Virus record (IMG/VR): IMGVR_UViG_3300027892_000107
Location: 1-30,541 of that record
Source of the DNA: a virus
Taxonomy: Duplodnaviria; Caudoviricetes
Length of the DNA: 30,541 bases
Strand: one strand, 5' to 3'
Shown here piece by piece: positions 1 to 26,461 of the stretch. Below the pieces are notes generated by a model, which did no database searches, was not told the DNA's origin, and saw only the letters and a list, made by a program, of their open reading frames with translations. A program made the position numbers and the translations under genes. Each line of letters opens with the position of its first letter. Within the stretch, counting starts at the first letter, position 1.

Positions 1-10
1 ACCCAAATTC

Positions 11-50
11 GACACGCCAAAGCCCCACCGGGTTTCCGGTGGGGTGAGGC
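11..50 (-). repeat. Intergenic hairpin repeat R1
   Basis: mRNA GCC-UCA-CCCC-ACCGG-AAAC-CCGGU-GGGG-CUUU-GGC-GUGUC; nearly identical to R12. Confidence 0.9.
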
Positions 51-55
51 TCTAT

Positions 56-292
56 TTAGCCAGGAATTTTGGCTACGTCATTCATATAATGAGACTTAGT
101 TCTTTCTTGAAGCTCCTGCTCCCAGAAAGACTGAAGCTCACGAAGCTTTTCGCCACGCTTCTTTATGACTTCGCTGTGGTAGTTTTCACCACCCCAACCA
201 GCAACACATTGGTGCCACTCTTCAGTATTTGTCCGTCGAGCGGTGCCGATGGCGTAAATGGTTTCCTGGATTTGTTGGTAAGTCGCGTTCAT
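56..292 (-). CDS. Hypothetical protein (78 aa, MNATYQQ...)
   Basis: GGAGA RBS before ATG at 292; fills the gap between R2 and R1. Confidence 0.75.
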   Translation of the reverse strand: MNATYQQIQETIYAIGTARRTNTEEWHQCVAGWGGENYHSEVIKKRGEKLRELQSFWEQELQERTKSHYMNDVAKIPG

Positions 293-308
293 GTAGTTCT
301 CCATTTTG

Positions 309-349
309 GACACGCTGAAACCCCCAGCCGTTTGGCCAGGGGTTGCAGG
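309..349 (-). repeat. Hairpin repeat R2
   Basis: CUG-CAA-CCCC-UGGCC-AAAC-GGCUG-GGGG-UUU-CAG-CGUGUC; two G-U pairs. Confidence 0.85.
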
Positions 350-352
350 TAG

Positions 353-739
353 TTACGCCCTAAATTGCTGGAATCTAAGGGGAGGCTTAACACCGAGGCG
401 GGACATCTTCCGGTCGAGTGCGAACCCGATGCCGGTTTCATAACAATAACTTTCCCAGCCGTACAAGGCGTCACAGCCCATAGCATCGAAGTCCCACATC
501 AAAGCGGTGATTACATCAATACTATGTTCACGCATCAGGCCGCGAATACGATTCTTCACGGTCTTGATGGCGCAAACTTTATCGCGACGATCATCTTCAA
601 TCACCACAGCGAGTTGACGAACAAGACGATCATATTCAGCGTCAAATTCTTCTTGAGTCTCGAAGTGAACGTTGCGCGGCCGAAAGCCGTAGACGTCCTT
701 GTGGAGGTCGGAGTAGGTATCGCAAATAAAAACAGTCAT
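353..739 (-). CDS. Hypothetical phage protein (128 aa, YSDLHKDVYGFRPR motif)
   Basis: GGAGA RBS, ATG at 739; N-terminal motif recalled from T4-like phage hypotheticals, not verified. Confidence 0.8.
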   Translation of the reverse strand: MTVFICDTYSDLHKDVYGFRPRNVHFETQEEFDAEYDRLVRQLAVVIEDDRRDKVCAIKTVKNRIRGLMREHSIDVITALMWDFDAMGCDALYGWESYCYETGIGFALDRKMSRLGVKPPLRFQQFRA

Positions 740-755
740 GTGATTTTTCTCCATT

Positions 756-799
756 CACAATGCCTTGACCCCAGCGGTTTTCCGCTGGGGTAAGTAGGC
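756..799 (-). repeat. Hairpin repeat R3
   Basis: GCCU-ACUU-ACCCC-AGCGG-AAAA-CCGCU-GGGGU-CA-AGGC; core identical to R6. Confidence 0.9.
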
Positions 800-1218
800 T
801 ATCGTTTAGCCGCGAGCATCTTCGCCGGGGATTGGCCGGCAAGAACTTGCGAGAGCGAGAACTTAAAACGTTTCCCGTCGCTTCGCGTCCCGATGAACGG
901 GTACTTGTGCGAACGAGCCTTATAGTCAATCAGAGTGATCGTACCGTTCATCGGCGAGACGAAGGTATCGGCCATCTTGTTGTCTTTAAGAACTTTCATC
1001 AGGGTCGGCGTTTGACCCAGCTGAACCGCTTCGGCAGACAACTTGCCTTTGACATGCGCATCGATACGCGTATGCATCGTGGAGCCGTCGGGAGCGAAGC
1101 GAATGTTCCCGAGCGTCAACATCAGACCGGACTCATCGCCGAATTTCGCGAGCACAAGGTTGAGCTCTTTGCGAAGGACAGCGAGAGTGGCTTTGTTGAA
1201 AGTGTTATAGGTCGTCAT
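799..1218 (-). CDS. Hypothetical protein (139 aa, MTTYNTF...)
   Basis: GGAGA RBS, ATG at 1218; stop abuts R3. Confidence 0.8.
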   Translation of the reverse strand: MTTYNTFNKATLAVLRKELNLVLAKFGDESGLMLTLGNIRFAPDGSTMHTRIDAHVKGKLSAEAVQLGQTPTLMKVLKDNKMADTFVSPMNGTITLIDYKARSHKYPFIGTRSDGKRFKFSLSQVLAGQSPAKMLAAKR

Positions 1219-1240
1219 GTGTAGGTTTCTCCATGTTACA

Positions 1241-1278
1241 CACTGCTGAAACCCCAGCACTTTGGCTGGGGTTAGCAG
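1241..1278 (-). repeat. Hairpin repeat R4
   Basis: CUGCU-AA-CCCC-AGCC-AAAG-UGCU-GGGG-UU-UC-AGCAG. Confidence 0.85.
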
Positions 1279-1279
1279 T

Positions 1280-1474
1280 TTAAACGTTTTCTTTGACCAG
1301 CTTCACGTTCCCGCCGTTAGGCAGGGGAACGGAACGCATGTCCCAAAAGAAGTCAACGTTGTCAGCGGACACCTGGCGAATCTCTTGCAGAGTTTCGCAC
1401 AGCTGCGACCAGGTCTTATCCAGAACCTGAACAGAACGATCAGGGTTCATGATGCGGATGCGAGTAACGGTCAT
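1280..1474 (-). CDS. Hypothetical protein (64 aa, MTVTRIR...)
   Basis: GGAGA RBS, ATG at 1474; stop abuts R4. Confidence 0.75.
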   Translation of the reverse strand: MTVTRIRIMNPDRSVQVLDKTWSQLCETLQEIRQVSADNVDFFWDMRSVPLPNGGNVKLVKENV

Positions 1475-1490
1475 GTCATTTTCTCCATTA

Positions 1491-1530
1491 GACACGCCAA
1501 AACCCCTGCCACTTTGGGCAGGGGTAAAGG
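1491..1530 (-). repeat. Hairpin repeat R5
   Basis: CCCC-UGCCC-AAAG-UGGCA-GGGG core, identical to R13. Confidence 0.9.
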
Positions 1531-1533
1531 ACA

Positions 1534-2367
1534 TCAACGCCGCTTCCGCGACGTCTTCTGTTCATCCATGAAGCTCACGAGGTCAAAGATTTCCGCTTCA
1601 ACGCCGCTGACGGCGTCTTCCACTTCGTCCATAACTTCGTCAATGCCCTCTTCGCGGTCGAAACCGGCGAAGACGTACGAGCCGGCAAAGGCAAGCACGA
1701 TGGAAAGAACAGTGATCAACGTGGCGTAGAGAGCCGCGTCGGTCAGGTTAAACGGGAGTTCCGCAGTGGGAGCACCCGCAGCGACCGTATCTGTCGCTTT
1801 CTTCAAGTCATCACGAGCCGTAACCAGCAGCCCACGGATCTCATCACCGCGTTTGTTCATGGCGTCAAGAGTATCGCCGCCACGATCACCATCGATTTTG
1901 TTCTTGTAATAACCAAGCGAGCTAAGCCGAAGCTGAGCTTTCTTGATCGTCGCCTCATCTTCAGCAACCATCAGCAGGAGTTCTGCATCAAGGTCAGTGA
2001 TCTGCTTTTCAGCAGCCGCTTTAGAGCCGACAGCGGTTTTATAGCTTGAATCACGGTCAGAGAAGGTTTGATCCGCCTTCTCAACTTCGTTCATCAAAGC
2101 AAGCTCGCCTGAGTGACGGTCAAGACCGCCAGCCACAAGGAGCAGGACGCCGAGGACCGCAGCAGCGACCCAACGGCGGTGGCGGATTTCGCTTTCAACC
2201 GCGACGCCGAGGGCTACGCCCGCAGCGGCAGTAAAAGGTCCAATCCAACCAGCGAACGGGATTTGAATTTGACTTTCAAACCCCGCATAGGCAAGCACGC
2301 CGGAGATGGCGGCCAGTCCAGTACCACAGGCAATCAGGATGACGCCAGCGATTTTGCGGAAAATCAT
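1534..2367 (-). CDS. Membrane protein with coiled coil and putative peptidoglycan-binding (PG_binding_1-like) segment
   Basis: GAGGAGA RBS, ATG at 2367; three N-terminal and one C-terminal hydrophobic helices; AQLRLSSLGYYKNKIDGDRGGDTLDAM fits Q..L..LGY....DG..G..T..A; acidic tail. Confidence 0.7.
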   Translation of the reverse strand: MIFRKIAGVILIACGTGLAAISGVLAYAGFESQIQIPFAGWIGPFTAAAGVALGVAVESEIRHRRWVAAAVLGVLLLVAGGLDRHSGELALMNEVEKADQTFSDRDSSYKTAVGSKAAAEKQITDLDAELLLMVAEDEATIKKAQLRLSSLGYYKNKIDGDRGGDTLDAMNKRGDEIRGLLVTARDDLKKATDTVAAGAPTAELPFNLTDAALYATLITVLSIVLAFAGSYVFAGFDREEGIDEVMDEVEDAVSGVEAEIFDLVSFMDEQKTSRKRR

Positions 2368-2384
2368 TAAATCTCCTCTTTTCT

Positions 2385-2428
2385 CACTACGCCTTGACCC
2401 CAGCGGTTTTCCGCTGGGGTAAGTAGGC
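2385..2428 (-). repeat. Hairpin repeat R6
   Basis: Same core and outer stem as R3. Confidence 0.9.
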
Positions 2429-2623
2429 TTAGGCAGCGAGCTTCGGTTCAACCATCGTGTGGTTGACGCCGAGTTCGGTCAGGTAGGCCGAAGAACGTTC
2501 CGCGTCCTCACGACGGAGATAGGTCAGCTTAAAGGTCTGACCGAACTCCGCCGAACCTTTGCACGTATTCACGTGCTTGATGACGAAAAGCGGAAGCTTG
2601 GCTTTTTTGACTGCGCGTTTCAT
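2429..2623 (-). CDS. Hypothetical protein (64 aa, MKRAVKK...)
   Basis: GAGAG RBS, ATG at 2623; stop abuts R6. Confidence 0.75.
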   Translation of the reverse strand: MKRAVKKAKLPLFVIKHVNTCKGSAEFGQTFKLTYLRREDAERSSAYLTELGVNHTMVEPKLAA

Positions 2624-2655
2624 ATTTAATCTCTCTTTAAGCCAGCGGTTTGCTG

Positions 2656-2696
2656 GACACGCCAAAACCCCCAGCACTTTGGCTGGGGGTAAGGGC
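2656..2696 (-). repeat. Hairpin repeat R7
   Basis: GCCC-UUA-CCCC-CAGCC-AAAG-UGCUG-GGGG-UUUU-GGC-GUGUC. Confidence 0.9.
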
Positions 2697-2698
2697 AA

Positions 2699-2950
2699 CT
2701 ACTTCGCTTTGCGGCGAGTAGAGCGTTTCACGGGGGCAGCTTTCTTCGCTGCCGCCGCTTTGATGTCGGTGACCACTTCGTCCTTCGTGACCGTGAGAGT
2801 TACCTCAAGGTCTTCGTTGAACGCTTCGATCTCGTCAGCGCGACGAGTGAAGTAGGTGTCAAGCAGGGTGTCGGTCACGATCACCGCCGCTTTGATCCGT
2901 TTGAAACGGGCGACGAGGTCACGAGCACGAGCAACACGAGCATTAGCCAT
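2699..2950 (-). CDS. Hypothetical basic protein (83 aa) with Ala/Lys-rich tail
   Basis: First gene of operon A; tail AAAAKKAAPVKRSTRRKAK; start uncertain (2950 vs 2965/2968). Confidence 0.7.
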   Translation of the reverse strand: MANARVARARDLVARFKRIKAAVIVTDTLLDTYFTRRADEIEAFNEDLEVTLTVTKDEVVTDIKAAAAKKAAPVKRSTRRKAK

Positions 2951-2986
2951 TTTGGTATTTTCCATCACCTGGCGTTAAGTGCCAGG

Positions 2987-3025
2987 CGTGCTGAAACCCC
3001 ACTAGGTTTCTAGCGGGGTAACAGC
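2987..3025 (-). repeat. Hairpin repeat R8 (end of leader A)
   Basis: GCUG-UUA-CCCC-GCUAG-AAAC-CUAGU-GGGG-UUU-CAGC; no gene upstream of it. Confidence 0.85.
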
Positions 3026-3070
3026 TGGAGATGTAGTAATGCGAACCCTTAAACCCGGAGGCGGGGTCGC

Positions 3071-3096
3071 GTCAATCTCTTCACAATGTCAAACAG
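3071..3096 (-). promoter_or_regulatory. boxA-like antitermination motif, leader A
   Basis: CUGUUUGACAUUGUGAAGAGAUUGAC, 25/26 identical to 6062-6087; resembles rRNA-leader boxA. Confidence 0.6.
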
Positions 3097-3179
3097 TGGC
3101 GGCTCAACCTAGTCCGGGTCCGTAATTCTGGCCCGTGGCGTCTTAAGTCCTCTGCGCCGGTTCACCTTCAAGTCTCATC

Positions 3180-3207
3180 AGTATACTCTCACTGGCAGAA
3201 AAGGCAA
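3180..3207 (-). promoter_or_regulatory. sigma70-type early promoter, operon A
   Basis: TTGCCT-N16-TATACT with AT-rich upstream DNA. Confidence 0.75.
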
Positions 3208-3296
3208 TACTCCTTTAAAAGGGCTTTGAAACTTTATTATTAAACTTTCGTAATGTTCATATCGTTAAACGATAAAAAGTTAATAAAAGGTTTCTT

Positions 3297-3379
3297 CTGT
3301 GGAGTCCCCACAGGAGCGATAGTTTTTCGGGTCCCCGGTGTAGGGTCAAAGAACTGATTCGCTCCAGTGAGCTCCACAG
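3297..3379 (-). other. Long imperfect RNA hairpin at the 3' end of operon B
   Basis: CUGUGGAG/CUCCACAG, CUCAC/GUGGG, GGAGCGA/UCGCUCC, AGUUCUUUG/CGAAAAACU. Confidence 0.7.
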
Positions 3380-3418
3380 ACACACCAAAACCCCAGCACG
3401 TTTGTGCCGGGGTAAAGG
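3379..3418 (-). repeat. Hairpin repeat R9
   Basis: CCCC-GGCAC-AAAC-GUGCU-GGGG-UUUU-GGUGUGUC. Confidence 0.9.
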
Positions 3419-3419
3419 T

Positions 3420-3632
3420 TTAGGATTTTCCTAGTCGGCCGTACAGAAGCGCCAAAACGAGGCTGTACGCTTCTAGCTCATTCCACTCATTGTAGAGTTC
3501 CGGCCAATTCAGATCTTGGTTGCCATAGAGGGCCCAGATACGTTGGCCGAACCGTAGATGTTCGGGATTTTTCCGCCACATCGTGAGCTCGTGAGCTAGA
3601 CCAGGGATCGTAAGATTTTCAGAAAGAAGCAT
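3420..3632 (-). CDS. Hypothetical protein (70 aa, MLLSENL...)
   Basis: AGGA RBS, ATG at 3632 just after the upstream stop; stop abuts R9. Confidence 0.7.
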   Translation of the reverse strand: MLLSENLTIPGLAHELTMWRKNPEHLRFGQRIWALYGNQDLNWPELYNEWNELEAYSLVLALLYGRLGKS

Positions 3633-3642
3633 TTGTTGTTTC

Positions 3643-3855
3643 CTAGACTTCAAAAGGACGGGTAAGTCGATCGATCTGCCGATCGTTATAGTTGCCGTCA
3701 TGCGTCCAGCGACGGAAAGCGAAGCAGTCCGTGCCGTTTTTATCACAGCGAGCCGCGAACTGGCAGGTATCGCAGGGATTAGGCCGAAGCGTTTCTTCCT
3801 GGATATATTCCCAGACTTTGGCGCGTTCGCCAGCGTTGTCAACTACGTAATCCAT
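3643..3855 (-). CDS. Small Cys-rich protein (70 aa)
   Basis: AAGGAGA RBS; PCDTCQFAARCDKNGTDC four-Cys cluster. Confidence 0.75.
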   Translation of the reverse strand: MDYVVDNAGERAKVWEYIQEETLRPNPCDTCQFAARCDKNGTDCFAFRRWTHDGNYNDRQIDRLTRPFEV

Positions 3856-3871
3856 ATTAGTTCTCCTTACA

Positions 3872-3912
3872 TACGCCTTGACCCCAACGCTTTTGCGCTG
3901 GGGTAAGTAGGC
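3872..3912 (-). repeat. Hairpin repeat R10
   Basis: GCCU-ACUU-ACCCC-AGCGC-AAAA-GCGUU-GGGGU-CA-AGGC. Confidence 0.9.
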
Positions 3913-4226
3913 TACTTAAAGACGCCGTGAGCGAGTTTCCGGTTAGGAACACTGCCATCTACAACACCGGTCTTGAACACAACCTTGCCGATCACTTTGA
4001 AGTAACCGAGGTGTTTCCAGGACTGATCATGCTTCGCGTCGTGGAACGTACCAACATTCCACTTTTCGCCGAGATCACCGAACGACGTCCAGACGCGAAA
4101 CTTATTCCCGTCTTGGACGATGTAGGCGACTTGACCAGGGTCAAAGTACTCAGCACTCTCAGGTTGGCATGGGTTCATGTAGGCGCCAGTAGGAAGAATA
4201 GCAGTTCTGTTTCGCCAGTTGTTCAT
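3912..4226 (-). CDS. Hypothetical protein (104 aa)
   Basis: GAGGA RBS; bounded by R11 and R10. Confidence 0.8.
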   Translation of the reverse strand: MNNWRNRTAILPTGAYMNPCQPESAEYFDPGQVAYIVQDGNKFRVWTSFGDLGEKWNVGTFHDAKHDQSWKHLGYFKVIGKVVFKTGVVDGSVPNRKLAHGVFK

Positions 4227-4245
4227 GTTGTTTTTCCTCTTTCAA

Positions 4246-4285
4246 CTACGCCTTGTCCCCAGCACTTTTGTGCCGGGGTAAGGTG
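4246..4285 (-). repeat. Hairpin repeat R11
   Basis: CCUU-A-CCCC-GGCAC-AAAA-GUGCU-GGGG-AC-AAGG-CGUAG. Confidence 0.9.
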
Positions 4286-4286
4286 T

Positions 4287-4556
4287 TTAGCGCCAACCGT
4301 TCTGGTAGAGCTCATGCTCAGTTTGGCGGTCGCTTTCGTCGAGCTCTTCCTTGAGCTCTTCGCCTTCTTTGAAAAGGCTGTCCCACTCTTCATCAGTGAT
4401 GCCGGTTTTGATGAACTCACGCTGCCCAGCCGTCAGGCCGAAGAAAGCGTCTTGCAGAAGTTCACCTACCGCATACCGATCAAACATTTCCTGGGTCGCA
4501 GGAATGTCGAGCGTGCGCTCAATACCGCTGATCATAGATTTACGGGTGATAAGCAT
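4287..4556 (-). CDS. Hypothetical phage protein (89 aa, QREFIKTGITDEEWD motif)
   Basis: AAGGAGA RBS, ATG at 4556; acidic C-terminus. Confidence 0.8.
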   Translation of the reverse strand: MLITRKSMISGIERTLDIPATQEMFDRYAVGELLQDAFFGLTAGQREFIKTGITDEEWDSLFKEGEELKEELDESDRQTEHELYQNGWR

Positions 4557-4573
4557 TTTTTGTCTCCTTGTTG

Positions 4574-4613
4574 GACACGCCAAAGCCCCACCGGGTTTCC
4601 GGTGGGGTAAGGC
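4574..4613 (-). repeat. Hairpin repeat R12
   Basis: One mismatch to R1 over 40 nt. Confidence 0.9.
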
Positions 4614-4853
4614 TCAGGGCGAAGTATAGTTCTCAGAGAACAGCGACTGGAAGCTGCTGATATCCAGAGCTTTGAGAAGCTCGAAGTCAGCCCGGTCAAT
4701 TCTCATCTTACGCCCAGCGGCGTACTCAGCGCGATGCCGAACATCGTAGTGATGAAGAACGACACGCTTCATTTCAGAGCGCGTGACCGCACCATGAAGA
4801 TTGATGCCTGCGTTTTCGACGAGCACCCGAACTGTTTCAGTTGAAGCAGTCAT
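4614..4853 (-). CDS. Hypothetical protein (79 aa, MTASTET...)
   Basis: AAGGAGA RBS, ATG at 4853; stop abuts R12. Confidence 0.75.
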   Translation of the reverse strand: MTASTETVRVLVENAGINLHGAVTRSEMKRVVLHHYDVRHRAEYAAGRKMRIDRADFELLKALDISSFQSLFSENYTSP

Positions 4854-4869
4854 ATTTGTCTCCTTGTTG

Positions 4870-4908
4870 GACACGCTGAAACCCCTGCCACTTTGGGCAG
4901 GGGTAAAG
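4870..4908 (-). repeat. Hairpin repeat R13
   Basis: Core identical to R5, tail like R2. Confidence 0.9.
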
Positions 4909-4909
4909 A

Positions 4910-5329
4910 TCAGCTATAACGTCGCTCACGTTCGCGGCGTTCATAACGTAGTTCTTCGAGTTCTTCTTGCTTTTCACGGTAGGCTTCGAGTTCTTCAAGT
5001 GTCATCTTTGACATCTTCATGCGCTCGAAGCAGGCGTTAACTCGGCCTTCGTCATCCGGCTGGGTCAGGTAGAACACATAAACGCCGAGCTCCTTGCGGT
5101 ACTCTTTGTCGATATATTCAAACCCACCATAATACTGGAGGACGCGGTCGTCACTCGCCTTACAGGCGATGAACTCTTCGTTTTGGGTATCAACCCAAAG
5201 ACCGCCGTAAGTGGCCCGTTCGTCAAGGCCGAGAGTGCTCAGATCGTGAACATGCTCGCATTGAAGAACGAGGTCTTCAGCGCCAGATTCAATAACGTCC
5301 ATGAGGTCGTTAAGCGATTCGATGGTCAT
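4910..5329 (-). CDS. Hypothetical acidic protein (139 aa)
   Basis: GGAGA RBS; bounded by repeats; charged helical C-terminus. Confidence 0.8.
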   Translation of the reverse strand: MTIESLNDLMDVIESGAEDLVLQCEHVHDLSTLGLDERATYGGLWVDTQNEEFIACKASDDRVLQYYGGFEYIDKEYRKELGVYVFYLTQPDDEGRVNACFERMKMSKMTLEELEAYREKQEELEELRYERRERERRYS

Positions 5330-5350
5330 GTGATTTTTTCTCCATTCTCA

Positions 5351-5389
5351 CTACGATGTGACCCCAGCGGGTTTCCGCCGGGGTACATC
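5351..5389 (-). repeat. Hairpin repeat R14
   Basis: GAUGU-ACCCC-GGCGG-AAAC-CCGCU-GGGGU-C-ACAUC; outer stem fully compensated. Confidence 0.85.
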
Positions 5390-5390
5390 A

Positions 5391-5627
5391 TCAGTAGTAG
5401 TCATCGCCGTCAAAGACGATGGCCAGCAGGTAGTACTCAGCGCCAGCCAGTCGTTTGAAGGACTTGGCGTTTGCCGTGTCGAACTCGCCGCTTTTAGGAT
5501 CGCATGGGGTCGCAACCCACAGGCCATCATCAAGCGTCGCCACTCCAACCGTCAAACCCGTTTTGCGCAGGTCATAGCGGTAACCATCATCGATGGAAAC
5601 GGGGACGAGATAATTTTCAAAGCTCAT
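5391..5627 (-). CDS. Hypothetical protein (78 aa)
   Basis: GGAGA RBS; bounded by repeats. Confidence 0.8.
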   Translation of the reverse strand: MSFENYLVPVSIDDGYRYDLRKTGLTVGVATLDDGLWVATPCDPKSGEFDTANAKSFKRLAGAEYYLLAIVFDGDDYY

Positions 5628-5646
5628 GTGATTTTTTCTCCATTCT

Positions 5647-5688
5647 CACAATGCTGAAAGCCCAGCGCTATTTGCGCCAGGCGATCAG
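5647..5688 (-). repeat. Divergent hairpin repeat R15
   Basis: CUGA-UC-GCCUGGCGC-AAAUA-GCGCUGGGC-UU-UCAG-CAUUGUG. Confidence 0.75.
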
Positions 5689-5841
5689 TCAGCAGTCGTA
5701 GTCAGGGTATTGCGTCAGGTAACCGAAGTGGTACCCGCGAAGAACATCCCCAATTTGGTCTTCTTTCAAACCGAGGGAGCGAATCAACACTTCGATGTTT
5801 TGAGTCGCGATAATATACCCAACTTGAAACCACGTAATCAT
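5689..5841 (-). CDS. Small hypothetical protein (50 aa, MITWFQVGYIIATQ...YPDYDC), not in the ORF track
   Basis: AAGGAGA RBS before ATG at 5841; TGA abuts R15 like the other genes. Confidence 0.7.
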   Translation of the reverse strand: MITWFQVGYIIATQNIEVLIRSLGLKEDQIGDVLRGYHFGYLTQYPDYDC

Positions 5842-5851
5842 GAGTTTTCTC

Positions 5852-5964
5852 CTTGCTCACATTAAGATACACCAAACCTTGTACCAGGCTGATCTGACCA
5901 ATCACTTCGAACTTATTTGGGGTCAGACAAATAAGCTCTAGTGGTGTATCCAAAAATGAGCAAG
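5852..5964 (-). ncRNA. Putative structured cis-regulatory RNA with pseudoknot in leader B
   Basis: Nested stems CUUGCUCAU/GUGAGCAAG, GGAUACACCA/UGGUGUAUCU, GAGCUUAUUUG/CAAAUAAGUUC; loop UCUGACC complementary to downstream GGUCAGA. Confidence 0.55.
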
Positions 5965-6061
5965 TCGTGTTTTGAAGCGTTACCGCACGATGGTAACTTT
6001 GTCGCTGGCAGCTTGGGTCAGAGCCCTGTGCGCTTCATGGGCTACCTAGAGCGGTAGGCCA

Positions 6062-6087
6062 GTCAATCTCTTTACAATGTCAAACAG
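6062..6087 (-). promoter_or_regulatory. boxA-like antitermination motif, leader B
   Basis: CUGUUUGACAUUGUAAAGAGAUUGAC, second copy of 3071-3096. Confidence 0.6.
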
Positions 6088-6223
6088 CGGCTTGGTGAGC
6101 TAGTCATTTCACATACAAGGCCGAAAAGTTTCCCACGTTTTTCACGCTCGTTACTGGCGTGGGACTTTTTCGGACCCAGGTAAAACCGGCCATTAAGTGT
6201 CTAGGCCGCTCCCAAGTTCAATC

Positions 6224-6251
6224 AGTATACTCCCACCAGCCGGGTTGTAAA
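6224..6251 (-). promoter_or_regulatory. sigma70-type early promoter, operon B
   Basis: TTTACA-N16-TATACT. Confidence 0.75.
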
Positions 6252-6335
6252 GTTAAACTTTCGTAATGTTTGACTGAAATCATTAGGTTTTTTCCTGTTA
6301 ACCGAACTTTTTCGTTAATTTTTGTTAATAATAAC

Positions 6336-7435: not shown

Positions 7436-7505
7436 TTTTATCGTTTACGATAAAAACAGGACTTGATGCTCCCGAATAGGATACATTTTATCGTTTACGA
7501 TAAAA
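7436..7505. repeat. Two identical 20-bp palindromes TTTTATCGTTTACGATAAAA, 50 bp apart
   Basis: Copies at 7436-7455 and 7486-7505, upstream of the -35 box. Confidence 0.85.
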
Positions 7506-7536
7506 GAATGGGGCGACCCCCGAAAAGGTCGCCCCA
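7502..7536 (-). terminator. Intrinsic terminator
   Basis: GGGGCGACCUU-UUCG-GGGGUCGCCCC then AUUCUUUU. Confidence 0.85.
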
Positions 7537-16655: not shown

Positions 16656-16738
16656 TGGTACCCGCTGCCGGAATCGAACCGGCACGCCGAAGCCACAGAT
16701 TTTAAGTCTGTTATGTCTACCAATTCCACCAAGCGGGC
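16656..16738 (-). tRNA. tRNA-Leu(TAA)
   Basis: Cloverleaf, long variable arm, encoded CCA. Confidence 0.95.
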
Positions 16739-16751
16739 TTATCTATCTTTT

Positions 16752-16780
16752 AATATACCCTACCCGAGCTCAATTGTCAA
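16752..16780 (-). promoter_or_regulatory. sigma70-type promoter for tRNA-Leu
   Basis: TTGACA-N17-TATATT. Confidence 0.75.
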
Positions 16781-16808
16781 CCAAAATACAAATTTTCTTT
16801 TTCCATAA

Positions 16809-16837
16809 TGGAAACGGGGACTTTCGTCCCCGTTCCA
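16809..16837 (-). terminator. Terminator-like hairpin
   Basis: AACGGGGAC-GAAA-GUCCCCGUU after the 16860 stop; short U run. Confidence 0.6.
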
Positions 16838-16859
16838 CTCATTAATTTTGAGTTAACGA

Positions 16860-17255
16860 TTAGACTGCTGGCGGAGTTGTTGTAAACTTCACCAAACGAG
16901 CCTTAACCATTTCCTGCACTTTAGCTTCGGTTATACCGAAGTGCGCAAGAGCGTCTGGTGTGTGGTTCTGAAGATACTCAAGCACGAACTTGCCGATGGC
17001 GTTGTCCACGTTGATTGTGATCTTCTGCTCATACACTTTTGCTTTGGCCAGATTGATGGCCTTGTCAATAGCAGGGTTAAGATAAGAACGGACTAGATCG
17101 TCAGAAACTAGACCATCAAGATGAACTTTTTGTAAAAGCCACTTGATAGCAACAGGTACTAGAGCTGCGATTGCTGCTGATGCAGCTGCGAAAACAAGCT
17201 GCACAAACGGTGCAACAAGTGTCATAAGGTCGAAGGTGTTAGTTACGGGATCCAT
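16860..17255 (-). CDS. Membrane protein, possibly holin-like
   Basis: N-terminal TM helix plus amphipathic helical domain; CATAAATA box and AGGAG RBS upstream. Confidence 0.55.
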   Translation of the reverse strand: MDPVTNTFDLMTLVAPFVQLVFAAASAAIAALVPVAIKWLLQKVHLDGLVSDDLVRSYLNPAIDKAINLAKAKVYEQKITINVDNAIGKFVLEYLQNHTPDALAHFGITEAKVQEMVKARLVKFTTTPPAV

Positions 17256-17310
17256 TTATTTCTCCTATAGGTGCCTATGCTCCTATTTATGAGAACGGAT
17301 CCCGCTGCTC

Positions 17311-17844
17311 TTATCCTCTCACAACATTTCCTTCGATATCAAGATAAAGACCGATATCAGCAAGCCAAGCAGGTAGACGTTCAATTTGTTCGGTTGTTCC
17401 ATATCTTTCCACCATCGAGACAACACGTTTCCAATCTGGGCCGACCCAGCTGTGATCATTCTTAGCGGAAGTGAGATAAGTCAGTTTCCGATTCCCGATG
17501 TTGTTTGGGAATGTTTCAATCACATTGTAAGGAAGACCTCTCAGGAATCCACGAGCAATGTTTGTCGCGCGAGCCGTTGGTTTCACATAGCGTCGGTTGT
17601 GATCACGAAGACCAAGGTAAGTATGCCAGCCTGTGTTGTTGTTATCATCTGCATTAATCATCCAAGAATGCTGCTCATCTTCGTTCTTAGGATCAGCGGC
17701 TTTACGTGCATCTTCAAGCAGACGAGCCCGATACTGCGAAGCCATGTACCTACGTTGTTGACGTAGAGCACGAGCTTGCTCTTTCTTGATAACTCGGCAT
17801 TCTTCTGCAAGGCTAAGAGCCTTGACTTTTAGTTCATACGACAT
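17311..17844 (-). CDS. Hypothetical protein (177 aa)
   Basis: AAGGAGA RBS. Confidence 0.8.
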   Translation of the reverse strand: MSYELKVKALSLAEECRVIKKEQARALRQQRRYMASQYRARLLEDARKAADPKNEDEQHSWMINADDNNNTGWHTYLGLRDHNRRYVKPTARATNIARGFLRGLPYNVIETFPNNIGNRKLTYLTSAKNDHSWVGPDWKRVVSMVERYGTTEQIERLPAWLADIGLYLDIEGNVVRG

Positions 17845-17865
17845 CTTAGTCTCCTTGTTTAAAGA

Positions 17866-17943
17866 TGGACGATAGGGTGGGATTCAAACCCACGGTGTTG
17901 GAGATTTGCAGTCTCCTGCGTTGGACCACTCCGCCACCTACCG
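17866..17943 (-). tRNA. tRNA-Cys(GCA)
   Basis: Cloverleaf, U73, CCA; T-loop TTTGAAT variant. Confidence 0.9.
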
Positions 17944-17950
17944 AATTGAT

Positions 17951-18027
17951 TGGCTGGTGCTCTAGGATTCGAACCCAGGACCTCGTGGACCAAAACCACG
18001 CGCTACTACCAACTGAGCTAAGCACCA
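17951..18027 (-). tRNA. tRNA-Gln(TTG)
   Basis: Cloverleaf, U1-A72, CCA. Confidence 0.93.
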
Positions 18028-18031
18028 TCAA

Positions 18032-18244
18032 CTAGAAAGTTGTTGGCTTTGCAACTGCACGTGTCAAGGCCATAAAACCTTGCTGCAGTTGCGTCACACC
18101 GATGGAAACCCATCGCTGGTCTACATCTGGTAGAGCTTTGATTCTATCAACGAGCAGTGAAATTACTTCGCCTTCTGATTTAATCAGATTAATCAAACCG
18201 ACTTCTTCATTCGTAAGAGTACGATAGCCTTTAATGTCGCTCAT
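18032..18244 (-). CDS. acb2: Acb2-family anti-CBASS cyclic oligonucleotide sponge
   Basis: IKGYRTLTNEEV.LIN.IK..G and RWVSIG.T.LQ.G.MAL.RAVAKP..F match the Acb2 pattern as I recall it. Confidence 0.85.
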   Translation of the reverse strand: MSDIKGYRTLTNEEVGLINLIKSEGEVISLLVDRIKALPDVDQRWVSIGVTQLQQGFMALTRAVAKPTTF

Positions 18245-18259
18245 TATATTTTCCTTTAA

Positions 18260-18334
18260 TGGAAGTCCCTGAGGGTTTCGATCCCTCTTTCCCTGCTTGA
18301 AAAGCAGATGTCCTAGCCACTAGACGAAGGGACC
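18260..18334 (-). tRNA. tRNA-Glu(TTC)
   Basis: Cloverleaf, CCA; atypical T-loop ATCGAAA. Confidence 0.88.
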
Positions 18335-18343
18335 GATTCCAAA

Positions 18344-18658
18344 TTACGCTTTTTCGAAGAACGCTTTATCGCCTTCGGCACGTTGACGATCAACTGATTC
18401 TACAGCGGCAAGAGCAATAGCTGCTGATTTAATCATAGACTGTCGGAACGCTTCAACCGTCTCTTTTGTATGAGGAGCCCAAGTACCATTCATCCAATTG
18501 GTCGAATACTGACCGATGTAGGATGCCCAGTGATGGGGAAGGTTGTATGTGTCGTCTTTAAAGTTTCCCCACTTCTCTGTTTGATATTTGCGCTCGGCGC
18601 GAACTTCATCGAGAATTGGTTCAAGATAATCTTTTTCAGTTTTTGCTTTAGTTACCAT
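18344..18658 (-). CDS. Hypothetical protein, possibly MazG-like all-alpha fold
   Basis: EVRAERKYQ.EKWG and IKSAAIALAAVE pattern; catalytic acidic motif not obvious. Confidence 0.5.
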   Translation of the reverse strand: MVTKAKTEKDYLEPILDEVRAERKYQTEKWGNFKDDTYNLPHHWASYIGQYSTNWMNGTWAPHTKETVEAFRQSMIKSAAIALAAVESVDRQRAEGDKAFFEKA

Positions 18659-18733
18659 TGTGTGTCACTTTCTTTTGCATAAGTTTAGTTATATGCCCAT
18701 GTTTTCGTAATCGCGGAGGGAGGCTCTCCTAGA

Positions 18734-18808
18734 TGGTACCCGGTGACGGGATTGAACCGCCGACAATTCCCGTGTAAAGGGAGCACTCTACCGCTGAGTT
18801 AACCGGGC
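18734..18808 (-). tRNA. tRNA-Val(TAC)
   Basis: Cloverleaf, CCA. Confidence 0.93.
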
Positions 18809-18835
18809 GAAAACCACACCGTACATATAGTTAAT

Positions 18836-18911
18836 TGGTGGACCATGACGGGATCGAACCGTCGACCTGAAGCTTGCAAAGCTACCGCTCTCCCAACTGA
18901 GCTAACGGCCC
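18836..18911 (-). tRNA. tRNA-Ala(TGC)
   Basis: Cloverleaf, G3-U70, CCA. Confidence 0.95.
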
Positions 18912-18916
18912 ATTTA

Positions 18917-18948
18917 ATTATACTACTATTTATCGTCTGAGAAGTCAA
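18917..18948 (-). promoter_or_regulatory. Promoter for the tRNA-Ala block
   Basis: TTGACT-N17-TAGTAT, overlapping TATAAT and an ATAAATA late-like box. Confidence 0.6.
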
Positions 18949-18953
18949 GCAAT

Positions 18954-19190
18954 TTATAGAAAAGCTTCAAACACCGAAGCTTCATCATCTGAAGTTTCTG
19001 AGTTAGCAATTAAACTTACTAGACCGGGACTAATATACACAAGATAACCTTCTTGTAATCCAGCAATCTGTTTTTTTGCTTCAGTAAGTGTTACACGAAC
19101 TGCGCGGTCGGCTTTAAATGGACTTTCAGACATCTTGGTGGCTGATACCATTTTAGTTTTTGGAATTATCATAAAGTAGTTTTCGAACAT
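18954..19190 (-). CDS. Hypothetical protein (78 aa)
   Basis: AGGA RBS; between tRNAs. Confidence 0.7.
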   Translation of the reverse strand: MFENYFMIIPKTKMVSATKMSESPFKADRAVRVTLTEAKKQIAGLQEGYLVYISPGLVSLIANSETSDDEASVFEAFL

Positions 19191-19206
19191 ATTTATATCC
19201 TAGAGT

Positions 19207-19296
19207 TGGCGGAACAAGAAGGATTCGAACCTTCGGGACCCTTTCGAGCCCGCGCAGTTAGCAACCGCGTGCCTTAAACCTCTCGGCCACTGTTCC
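19207..19296 (-). tRNA. tRNA-Ser(GCT)
   Basis: Long variable arm, G73, CCA. Confidence 0.95.
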
Positions 19297-19484
19297 TAAT
19301 CCTCATTAAAATCAACACCTTCGTACTGAGCATCACCATACCACTCACCAAAAGCATCCATCCATCCATCTGCCCATTGATAGAACTCAGATGTTCCTTC
19401 TTCGTATGGGTTATCTTCTTCTGGGATTTCGTTACGGAAAGCCTCACATCCATCATAGAAAATGTTTGAGTAAGAATCACTCAT
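19296..19484 (-). CDS. Small acidic protein with ribosome-modulation-factor-like pattern (62 aa)
   Basis: G.EAF......NPY.......QWADGWMDA resembles the Rmf G..A...PY...W..GW..A pattern; AGGA RBS. Confidence 0.55.
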   Translation of the reverse strand: MSDSYSNIFYDGCEAFRNEIPEEDNPYEEGTSEFYQWADGWMDAFGEWYGDAQYEGVDFNED

Positions 19485-19719
19485 TATCTGTCCTGAAAGT
19501 TTGAGCGTAATCGTCACATTGCTTGATGATAGTAACTGTATCAGTTTTTTTCTCGCGCATATCATCTTCAATCAATCGAGCATAACTGATGCAATCATTA
19601 AATGCATCTCTAACGTAATCACGCTCAAATTTTGTACAAGCAGTAAAAGCCACACAGGCAATGCCTAAGAGCAAGCAACGCCAAAGCGTCCTGGGTCTTT
19701 CAAGGTTTCTCGTTTGCAT
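19477..19719 (-). CDS. Putative lipoprotein (80 aa)
   Basis: Hydrophobic leader ending FTA-C (lipobox-like). Confidence 0.6.
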   Translation of the reverse strand: MQTRNLERPRTLWRCLLLGIACVAFTACTKFERDYVRDAFNDCISYARLIEDDMREKKTDTVTIIKQCDDYAQTFRTDNE

Positions 19720-19755
19720 TGGTTACTATAAACCCTTATTCACTGTGACTAAAAA

Positions 19756-19847
19756 TGGCGGAAGGTGAGGGATTCGAACTCTCGGGCCGCTTTCACGACC
19801 GGCAGTTTTCAAGACTGCAGCAATAAACCAGACTCTGCCAACCTTCC
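19756..19847 (-). tRNA. tRNA-Ser(TGA)
   Basis: Long variable arm, CCA. Confidence 0.95.
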
Positions 19848-19852
19848 TTATT

Positions 19853-19927
19853 TGGTACGCGAGAGAGGAATCGAACCTCACGTCGTTGCATTATCAGTGC
19901 AATGCTCTACCATTGAGCTACTCGCGC
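19853..19927 (-). tRNA. tRNA-Ile(GAT)
   Basis: Cloverleaf, CCA. Confidence 0.95.
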
Positions 19928-19928
19928 T

Positions 19929-20150
19929 CTATTCCTCTAAGTCAATACTGTAATTCCGAACCCCAGTTGGGTCAAGAACCACAACAACATCATAGTCGCG
20001 ATCATATCCTGCTACCATTGAGAGGCGATACACTTGACCGGCAACTTCTTCCATGGTAAGATTTTGACCACTGACAGTGAAATTCGTCGAACGCATCTTC
20101 ACATCGTTCTTGTAAAACTCAAGTTCATATTCAAACATTTTCGACCCCAT
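19929..20150 (-). CDS. Hypothetical protein (start 20150 or 20138)
   Basis: Directly downstream of a promoter. Confidence 0.65.
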   Translation of the reverse strand: MGSKMFEYELEFYKNDVKMRSTNFTVSGQNLTMEEVAGQVYRLSMVAGYDRDYDVVVVLDPTGVRNYSIDLEE

Positions 20151-20165
20151 AATGATTTATTCTTA

Positions 20166-20194
20166 ATAATACTCTAGAATCTATAGAAAGGCAA
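20166..20194 (-). promoter_or_regulatory. sigma70-type promoter
   Basis: TTGCCT-N17-TATTAT. Confidence 0.7.
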
Positions 20195-20212
20195 GCCTTT
20201 TTTGAAAAATTA

Positions 20213-20719
20213 TCATGATAAAGCAATAAACTCAGACTTTTTCAGAGTTTCTTTTGTGTTATCCAAAATAACTGCTGCTGTATTAGAACCAATATCTGTA
20301 GCCCAAACTTCTGCAGCAATTTCACCAGCGGTTGGTGCAGATCCACCGCCTGTTGATACGGTGATAGCTTGTACAGGTTGTGAATAATTTATTCTAATAA
20401 CAAAAGAACCTGTTGTGTTGGTAAATGGATCACCACCACCCGAACCAAGCAAAATTCCATTAAACACTCGTAGAGTATGATTGGCCTCTTGCGGTTTAAT
20501 TACCCACCCGTTTTTTAAAAACACGTAAATAGGCACTGTTGTTCCAGCGACAGTATCAATATCATTGCCACCCAAATTTTCCATAGCTACTGGAAATTTA
20601 GAATTGTCGCTTGTTAGGAACCAATCAACCCATCTACTCCATAAATCTTTAACATCGAGCACAGTTGTACCTGTGCTTAATGTGATGATCTTTGTACTGC
20701 CATTAAACGAAATTGCCAT
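20213..20719 (-). CDS. Putative virion structural protein (168 aa)
   Basis: Gly/Thr-rich, beta-like; last gene of the late module. Confidence 0.65.
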   Translation of the reverse strand: MAISFNGSTKIITLSTGTTVLDVKDLWSRWVDWFLTSDNSKFPVAMENLGGNDIDTVAGTTVPIYVFLKNGWVIKPQEANHTLRVFNGILLGSGGGDPFTNTTGSFVIRINYSQPVQAITVSTGGGSAPTAGEIAAEVWATDIGSNTAAVILDNTKETLKKSEFIALS

Positions 20720-20744
20720 AACATCATCTTACTATTTTAATATC

Positions 20745-22103
20745 TTATGGATTCACGTAAGCTCTATCCTGTTCAGCAACTACTGAAATCGCAATACCCT
20801 TTGAACGGGTGATAGTTCCGGTGGCAACCACAGGTTTTCCAAATCCTGGTCTTCCTGCAACAATTGTAATATCTGCATCTGTTCCAGCTGTTCTGCTACC
20901 CTGAACGTTACCATCATAGTCAAAGGTAAAGCTTACTGTAGCTCCTGAAATAGTTCCTTGAATTGCTGCCGGAGTTGCATCATTTACAGTAACGGCATCA
21001 GCTTGCCCGTAATCGTCTGTACTTGAACCTGGCAGAGACGTGAAATACATTCTATAATAGCTACCAGCGCCTTGCAAGAAGGAGTTGAATGTGATAACAC
21101 CAGCAGATGCGAATGCATATTGTCTCTGGACGTTATTTTGATCTAAGAATACGATTCTGTTAATATCGGCATCAAGAAGATTCTCGATAAACACGCCTTG
21201 TGTTGTATACAGCGTATCACCAACGAAATAAGCTAATTGGTTAGCTGTTTTACCAGTAACTGTTCCGGCACCGTTGTCGATATCTCCAGCTTGTCTTGTA
21301 AGATACTGTAGTTTCGTATAAATGTCTTCAAGTGTGTTATTATCACCATCAACAATAATTCTAAACGGATATCCTGTACCGCTAATCGTTTTCGTTTGGT
21401 TACTGCCAAAATATTCTGCAACAATAGTAGTATAAGGAGCCGAACCAACTGCGGTGTCGTCTGCTTGAACGTTAAGATCGGCTGAAACCGAAATAGGAAG
21501 TGAAACTTTAAATGCGCCAGTTGCAGTTTCACCGACATCACTCAATATAGCATCGTCGTATGTATAATCATATTCACGACAATAAAGTTTAAAGTATGTT
21601 CTTGTATCAAAGTTACCGTTCGAGGCGTCTCCAAATACTTGGATACCTTCGTTTGGAGCATCTGTGAATGTGAAGTTTATTGCTGTGCCACCGGAAGCTC
21701 TTTGGTAATAGAACTGTGCTCCTGCCGGAAATCCGGATGCAAGAGCCACAATACCAACGTACTGGCGATTTAGAGCGCCAGCATTACTAAATTCTGACCA
21801 ACCACCATCTCTAAGCATTTGGCGCGTAGCATCGTTAGCTGGTTTCCAACCCGAATACGTAGCACCGTCAGTTCCGAACTGAAACTGACCAGAACGAGAG
21901 TCGATAGTATACATAGGGAATGGATATTTGTTGTATGTGGATGTTGACCACAACTCCACAAACTTTGAATACAACGCCTGAAGGGTTACACCATCTTTAG
22001 CAACGAGTGAGCCAGCTACAGTGAGAGTAAAGGTTTTGGCCGCTGTATTAATAGTAAGATTGGTATCAACAACCAATAGATCTGGATCTGTAATTTTCGC
22101 CAT
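20745..22103 (-). CDS. Putative virion structural / tail-associated protein (452 aa)
   Basis: TATAAATA at 22132-22139, AGGAG RBS; Thr/Gly/Ala-rich. Confidence 0.7.
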   Translation of the reverse strand: MAKITDPDLLVVDTNLTINTAAKTFTLTVAGSLVAKDGVTLQALYSKFVELWSTSTYNKYPFPMYTIDSRSGQFQFGTDGATYSGWKPANDATRQMLRDGGWSEFSNAGALNRQYVGIVALASGFPAGAQFYYQRASGGTAINFTFTDAPNEGIQVFGDASNGNFDTRTYFKLYCREYDYTYDDAILSDVGETATGAFKVSLPISVSADLNVQADDTAVGSAPYTTIVAEYFGSNQTKTISGTGYPFRIIVDGDNNTLEDIYTKLQYLTRQAGDIDNGAGTVTGKTANQLAYFVGDTLYTTQGVFIENLLDADINRIVFLDQNNVQRQYAFASAGVITFNSFLQGAGSYYRMYFTSLPGSSTDDYGQADAVTVNDATPAAIQGTISGATVSFTFDYDGNVQGSRTAGTDADITIVAGRPGFGKPVVATGTITRSKGIAISVVAEQDRAYVNP

Positions 22104-22131
22104 TTGTCTGCGTAACTCCTAAGCTTTTTCT

Positions 22132-22139
22132 TATTTATA
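22132..22139 (-). promoter_or_regulatory. T4-type late promoter TATAAATA
   Basis: Exact intergenic match. Confidence 0.7.
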
Positions 22140-22140
22140 A

Positions 22141-24744: not shown

Positions 24745-24753
24745 TAATTATTC

Positions 24754-26292
24754 CTACGAGTAAACAAACGCAGCGCGATTATTCCAAATCTTATCAAAAT
24801 TAGATGTACCGGACGCCCAGAGAATATTTGTATCGTCTCCTGCTACCTCAACACGCTTAATTCTCCAGACAGCCGCAGCTGCAGATGATCCTGGATCGGC
24901 TTCACCAATATAGGTGTAGGATCCAGAAACATCTATAAGTTTATTGTATTGCATCTCAACACTCGTTGTAATTTCCCCGATTATCTCATCAATGTTTGTT
25001 GCAACAAATTTTTTCTTAGCAGGATCAAAAATCAGGACACTTCTATCTGCAACAGTATTTATTCGTTTGAATTCCACATCATCATTATCCATCAATTTAG
25101 TAGAACCGCCGCCGTGCGATCCTGGTCCAGGCATCCTTGAAGATAATTTATATAATTCTTTACTCATCAACATCTTATAGCTACTGAGATCTTGGTTAAT
25201 TCTTAAGCTTAATTGCGTTAAAAGTGCGTCAATGCTTGGTGTGTCACCTTTCTCACCACGCTCGCCTGGTGGACCCATATCACCCTTTTCACCTTTTTCA
25301 CCGCGATCGCCTTTGTCGCCCTTATGTCCTTGTGGTCCACCAAAATCACCTTTTTCGCCGCGATCACCTTTGTCGCCCTTATCGCCTTTTGATCCTTTGG
25401 GGCCTTCTTTGCCTTGTTTACCTTCTTTGCCTTCAGGTCCACGATCTCCCTTGTCACCCTTCAGGCCTTTAGGACCATCTTTACCTTTTCTGCCTTCTTT
25501 ACCTTCTTTGCCCTGTTTACCTTCAGAACCACGATCACCTTTATCACCCTTTGGGCCTTTAGAACCTTCTAAACCATCTCTGCCATTTGCGCCTGGTAAG
25601 CCATCTTTACCATCTACGCCGTCTTTACCGTTTTCTGGTTTTTCTAACAGAACCCGGACATCATTTTTGAAACGAAGATACAAATCTCCAACATCATCTT
25701 TGAAGATGGCATCGGCGTTCTCATTTAGTGATGTGATATCTTCGGTGTATCTAAGTCCATAATCAATTAATTCGTCGAGTTTAGATTTTCTATCAGAAAC
25801 ATTCTTTTCTGTCTCAACAATAGTTTCTTCAGTTTTTGTGTACTTGACAAAATCACCAGAACTAAAATGTAACGGTACATCAAGTTCTTTATTATAATAG
25901 AGCCCACCTTCAGTTGGTCTCTCAACATGTATAGAATCTACGGCGCGCAATGAGACGATACAGTTGTTGTACTGCTCGAACATCTTGGTATCATTTGGAT
26001 AATAACCAGGTGGTACCTTCAGTAGATACCTTTTCCCGTCTGATGCAGGAACACCTTCTTGTTTTAGATTCCACTCTCTTTCGAATTGGTTGTCAAACTT
26101 TTCATCAGACACACTATTCTCATTAACGTATAATTCTTTACCCTCGGATACAACAACAGAACCATAATGCAGGCAATATTCCACACCGTCAAAAACCACA
26201 GTTTTCTTGTCTACTAAAAATGAATTTTCTGTAGATTGATTCCTCAACTGGACATCAGCGTCTGTGAGGATTTTAGAAACTATGAATCGCAC
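24754..26292 (-). CDS. Collagen-like triple-helix protein (fibre/whisker-like)
   Basis: 43 G-X-Y triplets (32 + 11, one Gly insertion) at ~25240-25630; GTG start with GGAG RBS; CATAAATA at 26321-26328. Confidence 0.85.
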   Translation of the reverse strand: MRFIVSKILTDADVQLRNQSTENSFLVDKKTVVFDGVEYCLHYGSVVVSEGKELYVNENSVSDEKFDNQFEREWNLKQEGVPASDGKRYLLKVPPGYYPNDTKMFEQYNNCIVSLRAVDSIHVERPTEGGLYYNKELDVPLHFSSGDFVKYTKTEETIVETEKNVSDRKSKLDELIDYGLRYTEDITSLNENADAIFKDDVGDLYLRFKNDVRVLLEKPENGKDGVDGKDGLPGANGRDGLEGSKGPKGDKGDRGSEGKQGKEGKEGRKGKDGPKGLKGDKGDRGPEGKEGKQGKEGPKGSKGDKGDKGDRGEKGDFGGPQGHKGDKGDRGEKGEKGDMGPPGERGEKGDTPSIDALLTQLSLRINQDLSSYKMLMSKELYKLSSRMPGPGSHGGGSTKLMDNDDVEFKRINTVADRSVLIFDPAKKKFVATNIDEIIGEITTSVEMQYNKLIDVSGSYTYIGEADPGSSAAAAVWRIKRVEVAGDDTNILWASGTSNFDKIWNNRAAFVYS

Positions 26293-26333
26293 AACTTAAA
26301 CTCCAATGTTTATTTCCTAGTATTTATGCATAA

Positions 26334-26362
26334 AAAAAGACGCCATTAAATGGCGTCTTTTT
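26334..26362. terminator. Bidirectional intrinsic terminator
   Basis: AAAAAGACGCCAT-TAA-ATGGCGTCTTTTT. Confidence 0.85.
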
Positions 26363-26369
26363 CTTTATT

Positions 26370-26446: not shown

Positions 26447-26461
26447 GTAATTGTAATCTAT

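Follow-up and report, generated by a model that had tools for sequence, protein, structure and literature searches.

Phage use of boxA has been described for lambdoid and mEp-type coliphages, in which the element works with an N-like protein. Here we analyse two leaders, A and B, that head minus-strand operons of small open reading frames (ORFs) in a 30,541-nucleotide (nt) stretch of DNA (the window; IMG/VR virus record IMGVR_UViG_3300027892_000107), a fragment of an uncultured T4-like phage that encodes a helicase, UvsX, a polymerase, a clamp loader, a RegA-like repressor and 13 tRNAs. An earlier inspection (the original prediction) had proposed that both leaders are built like those of bacterial rRNA operons (rrn). 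In our reading, each has an alphaproteobacterial rrn boxA in front of an array of promoter-less cassettes, and the two leaders likely load host NusB-NusE antitermination for one early transcript per array.

The closest described system is the bacterial rrn leader signal (boxB-boxA-boxC), served by NusA, NusB, NusE, NusG, SuhB and S4, with boxA recognised by NusB/NusE (PMC3177189; papers are cited by PMC number, for the accessible parts of their text). The phage leaders share with it a promoter-proximal boxA of the alphaproteobacterial type, stems ahead of it and an AUU-containing spacer. They differ in heading protein-coding cassette arrays rather than rRNA, in having no processing-stem motif, in adding the word AGAYUGAC (Y, C or U) and a conserved hairpin after boxA, and in a promoter spacer of 16 bp, compared with 17-18 bp in host rrn. 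The AUU of the lambda nut spacer binds NusA (PMC2724277, PMC8632103), and nut-site antitermination is also known from mEp021 (PMC11893012). Lambda nut/N and mEp021 Gp17/nut resemble the window in having early operons with boxA, spacer and hairpin, two sites per genome and a small basic ORF downstream; here, however, the phage is lytic and T4-like, its boxA follows the host consensus, the loop is not A-rich, an extra junction lies upstream, and no N is recognisable, the candidate being missing from other carriers. Outside rRNA operons, host boxA is reused at suhB (PMC5725501) and, ahead of a repeat array, at CRISPR loci (PMC13753749, in a citing sentence), but these cases are chromosomal and gammaproteobacterial, and the CRISPR arrays are non-coding. 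Finally, the PeSL cassettes of T4-type phages (PMC2839356, PMC4122927) match the arrays of the window in their repeats of a G/C-tract stem-loop and ribosome-binding site (RBS) between small variable-region ORFs and in their shuffled order. PeSL stem-loops were shown to terminate and each cassette brings its own promoter, whereas the window repeats are promoter-less and must depend on the two boxA leaders for their transcription; boxA is not mentioned in the accessible text of PMC2839356. Our literature search, which covered main texts and few subscription papers, turned up no description of boxA in alphaproteobacterial or T4-like phages; the "boxA" of PMC9025141 is the name of a PCR primer, not an antitermination signal.

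Results

The 26-nt motif said to be shared by the two leaders (25 of 26 positions identical) was found at 3096-3071 and 6087-6062 on the minus strand, and the window has exactly two copies of its 14-nt core, one per leader. Scanning bacterial genomes with an exact 17-mer returned at least 120 loci, dominated by Alphaproteobacteria. Among the 120 listed, 33 lay in rRNA operons, at least 11 of them in 16S leaders (184-255 nt ahead of the 16S gene) and at least 22 in 16S-23S spacers, with none antisense; these counts are minima, because 40 of the listed loci came with flanks of only 300 nt. An unselected host set was then aligned with the motif, a comparison that the original prediction had suggested, using 30 16S loci from a class-wide sample, one of which was dropped for its short flank (n = 29). 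The phage core was present within two mismatches in 16 of the 29 leaders, compared with 1/29 antisense and 14/580 shuffled sequences, and three leaders contained the same 12-nt core as the phage boxA. Motif discovery on the host 16S leaders alone yielded a processing-stem-like motif first and GCTCTTTGACATTG second; with the GCTCTTTGACATTG matrix, a leader was the top site in the window and in the phages L222, L215 and L310 described below. A degenerate boxA 12-mer matched nine times in five related records (219 kb), each time in a leader, and its reversed control not at all, well in excess of chance. Genome matches, host leaders and the host-derived matrix thus bear out the boxA-like motif noted in both leaders, and, as judged from these sequence comparisons, the 26-mer begins with a true alphaproteobacterial rrn boxA. 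The likeness to rrn leaders did not extend to the processing stem, the strongest leader motif of the hosts, which is missing from the phage leaders and scores at most 10.4 bits anywhere in the window.

Many alphaproteobacterial boxA matches fall elsewhere than in rRNA operons, frequently downstream of a promoter and with several copies in one genome, pointing to non-rrn use of boxA by the hosts. They occur in Robiginitomaculum, Aestuariivirga and uncultured groups (loci L090, L092, L112, L113, L116, L119, L153, L164, L168, L171, L177, L181, L188, L194 and L200); in SAR116-type genomes (L106, L147, L158, L161), an RBS and start codon follow boxA directly, the arrangement known from suhB in E. 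coli.

Pattern scans recovered three more lineages of the T4-like clade (L222/L235; L224; L215 with L218 and L221), each with two leaders in the same places. Most other pattern matches, including L083, were chance occurrences within ORFs, and L081/82 and similar records, being the same genome, were left uncounted. All four lineages have two leaders in which a 16-bp promoter is followed by a multi-stem fold, boxA, AGAYUGAC and a covarying hairpin, and in all four the boxA leader heads promoter-less cassette arrays, the order of which is permuted between lineages. No array was found at the 80 loci of helicase-based relatives, and our searches found no close cultured relative of the window phage.

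The arrays occupy bases 1-5841 of the window as small minus-strand ORFs spaced by a recurring GC-rich hairpin and RBS, broken by the two leaders. The hairpin recurs in 14 clear copies between 10 and 5700 (about -13 to -20 kcal/mol, minus strand), each with a short conserved linker and RBS behind it. Cassettes have been singly gained, lost and reordered between relatives, giving a PeSL-like but promoter-less layout: a promoter scan of the arrays found no good internal promoter and no sigma70 promoter within each repeat. Only one of the 14 hairpins is followed by at least five T in the next 8 nt, and the cassette hairpins would be at most weak terminators.

In the leaders, a gap of 4-5 nt separates boxA from AGAYUGAC, and a hairpin with CC/GG closure comes next. 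AGAYUGAC is present in 11 of 12 phage leaders, with a one-letter variant in the twelfth, and follows none of 136 host boxA sites (expectation, 0.0018 times per 60 nt). On the sequences compared, the word is a phage-only extension of boxA, new here and common to three phage groups, one of them cultured. The second group was reached by a search with ORF83 of operon A, which led to L310, an unrelated phage with a CI-like repressor and, from a reading of its ORFs, an integrase, that is, a temperate phage. There, GACUA, boxA, AGACUGAC and a hairpin stand ahead of an accessory operon that encodes homologs of both ORF83 and ORF277. A scan for boxA plus AGAYTGAC gave 99 loci, mostly chance matches within ORFs, from which two with a perfect host prefix (L420, L421) were picked by eye. 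Both are complete phages of 59-60 kb, whose single boxA stands downstream of a promoter-like site and ahead of an operon's first gene. Their terminase led to the cultured Rhizobium phage RHph_TM3_14A (39% identity), in which one exact boxA heads an operon of small genes. Its structured, non-coding leader of ~430 nt (L427 1500-1940; MN988472.1 17765-18200) departs from the nut-like order of boxA, AUU spacer and hairpin in that 52 nt intervene before AGAUUGAC, which is followed by GACUAG. Synechococcus phage MinM2 had no exact boxA. From the boxA type and the Rhizobium phage, we infer an alphaproteobacterial host.

The hairpins with ACUUAA loops described originally were seen at 3137-3158, 6187-6208 and 2966-2988, all on the minus strand, and GACUAG was found in both leaders, at 3114 and 6105. 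In the predicted fold of the 5' part, an outer stem encloses a short large-loop hairpin and a variable second hairpin, often with a GACUA linker. Stems, including a boxB-like stem-loop upstream of boxA, are predicted in the 5' domains of all eight leaders folded, with mixed single-sequence z-scores (-2.8 to +0.9). These upstream stems differ among leaders while boxA is retained; by eye, paired changes were seen between leader A and L224B, which have the same fold, and between leader B and L222B. The ACUUAA hexamer itself is present in only three of the eight leaders of the four lineages, the others having ACUUUA, ACUAAA, ACUCAA or ACUAUC, so that loop conservation is limited to an ACU core and the suggestion that ACUUAA is the specific ligand of an N-like protein is not supported. 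Ahead of the ORF83 gene, other lineages also have a hairpin-like untranslated region (UTR), with different loops. Covariation provides modest evidence for the post-boxA hairpin, six cells of an alignment of nine related rows being changed on both sides, a level reached in 0 of 500 shuffles. Its loops, G-(N2-4)-UA, are pyrimidine-rich rather than A-rich as in boxB. The HK022 put RNA is a factor-independent, two-stem element that binds the polymerase zinc finger; in the phage leader, a single base separates two stems. We also searched for a leader-trailer helix and a loop-linker pseudoknot, but neither was supported. Coordinates are collected in Table 1.

Table 1. Predicted elements of the two leaders and associated features of the window
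Feature	Position	Strand	Remarks
Promoter B, TTTACA-16-TATACT	6224..6251	-	predicted start near 6218; 16-bp spacing common to leader promoters
5' domain of leader B	6092..6218	-	predicted multi-stem junction: outer stem, ACU-loop hairpin 6187-6208, long second hairpin, GACUA linker; z -2.83
boxA of leader B (alphaproteobacterial rrn type)	6075..6088	-	19.0 bits, top match of the window for the host-16S-leader motif
AGAYUGAC word of leader B	6062..6069	-	phage-specific, after boxA
Post-boxA hairpin of leader B, CC-G(N2-4)UA-GG loop	6038..6061	-	covariation, 9 related rows only
Structured untranslated stretch (predicted)	5842..6037	-	long, reaching to first gene of operon B; fold; retained in L204/L208
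Operon B	3420..5841	-	small ORFs, mainly hairpin + RBS + ORF cassettes without own promoters; order permuted in relatives
Promoter A, TTGCCT-16-TATACT	3180..3207	-	predicted start near 3174
5' domain of leader A	3101..3174	-	predicted three-way junction: ACU-loop hairpin 3137-3158, second hairpin, GACUA linker; z -0.69 alone
boxA of leader A	3084..3097	-	12.5 bits, fourth best in window; A replaces G at first motif position
AGAYUGAC word of leader A	3071..3078	-	after boxA
Post-boxA hairpin of leader A	3040..3070	-	longer; loop atypical in this genome
ACUUAA-loop hairpin in ORF83 5' UTR	2966..2988	-	z -3.57
ORF83	2699..2950	-	basic N-terminus, predicted single long helix, orphan family; N-like candidate only
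Rest of operon A	10..2698	-	hairpin-linked cassettes; continues past contig end
ORF277	1534..2367	-	predicted membrane protein; co-occurs with ORF83, including in unrelated temperate phage L310

The two leader promoters do have the 16-bp spacers reported for them, as do all eight leader promoters of the four lineages, with unrelated spacer sequences. The nine other strong minus-strand promoter matches in the window have spacers of 17 bp (seven), 15 bp (one) and 19 bp (one), and most other phage promoters have 17 bp. This spacing had been taken as rrn-like, E. coli rrn P1 promoters having 16-bp spacers. Candidate host rrn promoters, picked by eye, have 17-18-bp spacers with one ambiguous 16/18 case, some 16-bp matches in host rrn leaders lie at implausible places, and in R. 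sphaeroides the rrnB promoter has a 17-bp spacer (PMC7703639). Moreover, three records have a 16-bp promoter without boxA downstream of the array. The 16-bp spacer is thus a trait conserved among the phages rather than an imitation of rrn promoters.

Most leader promoters have an imperfect palindrome, AACATTA-N8-TAATGTT, immediately upstream of the -35 box (window 6250-6272 and 3238-3260, minus strand; also the L222 and L215 leaders); it is a possible activator or repressor site. An AT-rich palindrome in two copies at 7436-7506, between the helicase and phosphoesterase genes, resembles one upstream of promoter A. In L238 (200-280), a strain near-identical to the window, an A-type promoter region stands ahead of leader B, suggesting exchange between leaders.

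ORF83 (83 amino acids) belongs to an orphan family of ~20 clusters, mostly of 63-87 amino acids. It had no match in 401 genomes of the class and no Atlas match; a single weak partial match in 401 genomes of one order was not accepted. ORF83 and the leader co-occur in five lineages, and ORF83 is absent from three complete boxA carriers. It is possibly an N-like factor, but equally possibly a partner of ORF277, whose homolog in L310 has 24% identity (E 5e-11). The two genes (window 1534-2950, minus strand; L310 9977-11065) are found together in the T4-like clade and in the unrelated temperate phage, and the pair is possibly an exclusion or counter-defence module.

Discussion

Recruitment of host NusB-NusE at the two leaders draws on direct observations: the sequence identity with host boxA, the position and strand of the motif, its conservation in four lineages, the shuffling of cassettes and the lack of internal promoters. 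We infer the steps beyond the sequence match as follows. Host sigma70 polymerase would start at the 16-bp leader promoter, and boxA would be presented by the folded 5' stems. NusB/NusE would then bind boxA and NusA the AUU-containing spacer, and the modified polymerase would resist Rho on the long untranslated leaders and the foreign, shuffled genes, one early transcript running through each array. The AGAYUGAC word and the flanking stems would probably make the complex stronger or widen its reach, perhaps to include the GC-rich hairpins of the cassettes. With few U-tract hairpins, no C bias and an E. coli rrn complex that works only at Rho-dependent terminators (PMC2724277), what is overridden may be Rho acting on untranslated leaders and foreign genes, the conservative answer, or, more boldly, attenuation by hairpins. 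If correct, the reading would bring alphaproteobacterial phages, namely a lytic T4-like clade and two further groups, within the reach of Nus-dependent antitermination, explain the expression of promoter-less shuffled cassettes and predict NusB as a host factor. The cultured phage RHph_TM3_14A makes it directly testable.

Several observations weigh against this reading. In L224, a non-leader site ranks first with the GCTCTTTGACATTG matrix and the leaders second and third; five of the eight clade leaders have no G at the first motif position, and leader A ranks only fourth in the window. At position 5, the phage boxA carries G, whereas C is required in E. coli boxA (PMC3177189), and boxA is not predicted to be more single-stranded than its flanks (mean unpaired 0.39-0.58). 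Most array hairpins have no U-tracts, and therefore a need for antitermination is not evident, nor does the array show a C-over-G bias pointing to Rho sites (C 0.255, G 0.265).

A further-reaching proposal, which we hold tentatively and regard as rather doubtful, is that boxA, AGAYUGAC and the ACU-loop/GACUA stems form an undescribed family of antitermination sites that upgrades the host complex without an N protein and passes hairpin terminators, so that a T4-like phage could run promoter-less shuffled arrays. Such a family may be common to T4-like, temperate and 60-kb alphaproteobacterial phages.

The alternatives differ mainly in what boxA is for. In a lambda-type nut site, the post-boxA hairpin would be the equivalent of boxB, bound by an N-like ORF83 that would inhibit its own translation at its ACUUAA hairpin and confer resistance to intrinsic terminators. 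The order of boxA, AUU-containing spacer and hairpin is that of nut sites (PMC2724277, PMC8632103), the hairpin covaries, basic residues are conserved among the first 20 positions of ORF83, which lies within operon A in all four lineages, a homolog sits behind the same leader in the unrelated L310, and Nus-dependent N-like systems are known outside the lambdoids (PMC11893012). We nevertheless consider it unlikely: searches that found their positive control detected no ORF83 homolog in the two 60-kb phages (G815, G816) or RHph_TM3_14A despite boxA and AGAYUGAC, and ORF83, which co-occurs with the membrane protein ORF277 and may be its partner, is predicted as one continuous amphipathic helix (pTM 0.39) with no Pfam, PHROG or PDB assignment or link to N; moreover, the hairpin loop has the wrong composition. 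That the boxA-Nus complex serves mainly as a co-transcriptional chaperone or stabiliser of a structured RNA, antitermination being secondary, would suit the long, structured leaders of the window (~220 and ~380 nt) and of RHph_TM3_14A, and the rrn complex does have chaperone activity (PMC8632103). This seems quite improbable, as boxA is followed by little RNA before the first gene or cassette in L420, L421 and the short A-type leaders, no Rfam family covers the leaders, and the long downstream complement of rRNA precursors is missing (at most 8 nt).

We give very little credence to boxA as a sensor or decoy that represses the first gene or titrates NusB/NusE from host rRNA operons. Although suhB is repressed via boxA in its 5' UTR (PMC5725501) and strong early promoters would yield many copies, the window boxA lies ~130-230 nt from the first start codon and not on the RBS, and there is one copy per operon, always promoter-proximal. 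Hardly credible, finally, is a DNA element, either a -35 box within the leader or an operator made of TTGAC direct repeats, suggested by TTGACA within the motif and a second TTGAC ~16-17 nt on. A conserved -10 box is missing (the best match is 1-3 of 6 positions in all 11 leaders), which argues against the -35 box that the original prediction had listed among the outcomes that would refute it; the spacing of the repeat ranges from 4 to 52 nt among phages; and the motif is always on the transcribed strand behind a promoter, with a host boxA match that extends past TTGACA.

Additional features of the window

By their predicted structure, the ~200 nt at 5842-6037 (minus strand) may mask the RBS of operon B's first gene; the 5' part of this stretch is retained, with changes, in L224B. 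An Rfam search of the window returned tRNAs only, plus three weak overlaps with them, and neither rRNA nor a leader family. Much of the array is covered by RNA-run contigs from three freshwater studies, with two pieces bridging a repeat and two crossing promoter A; strand, start and level cannot be read from these contigs, which may stem from carried-over DNA, and they were not used as evidence. The 13 tRNA genes are scattered among ORFs at 16656-29056 (minus strand), with no boxA core ahead of them in the window.

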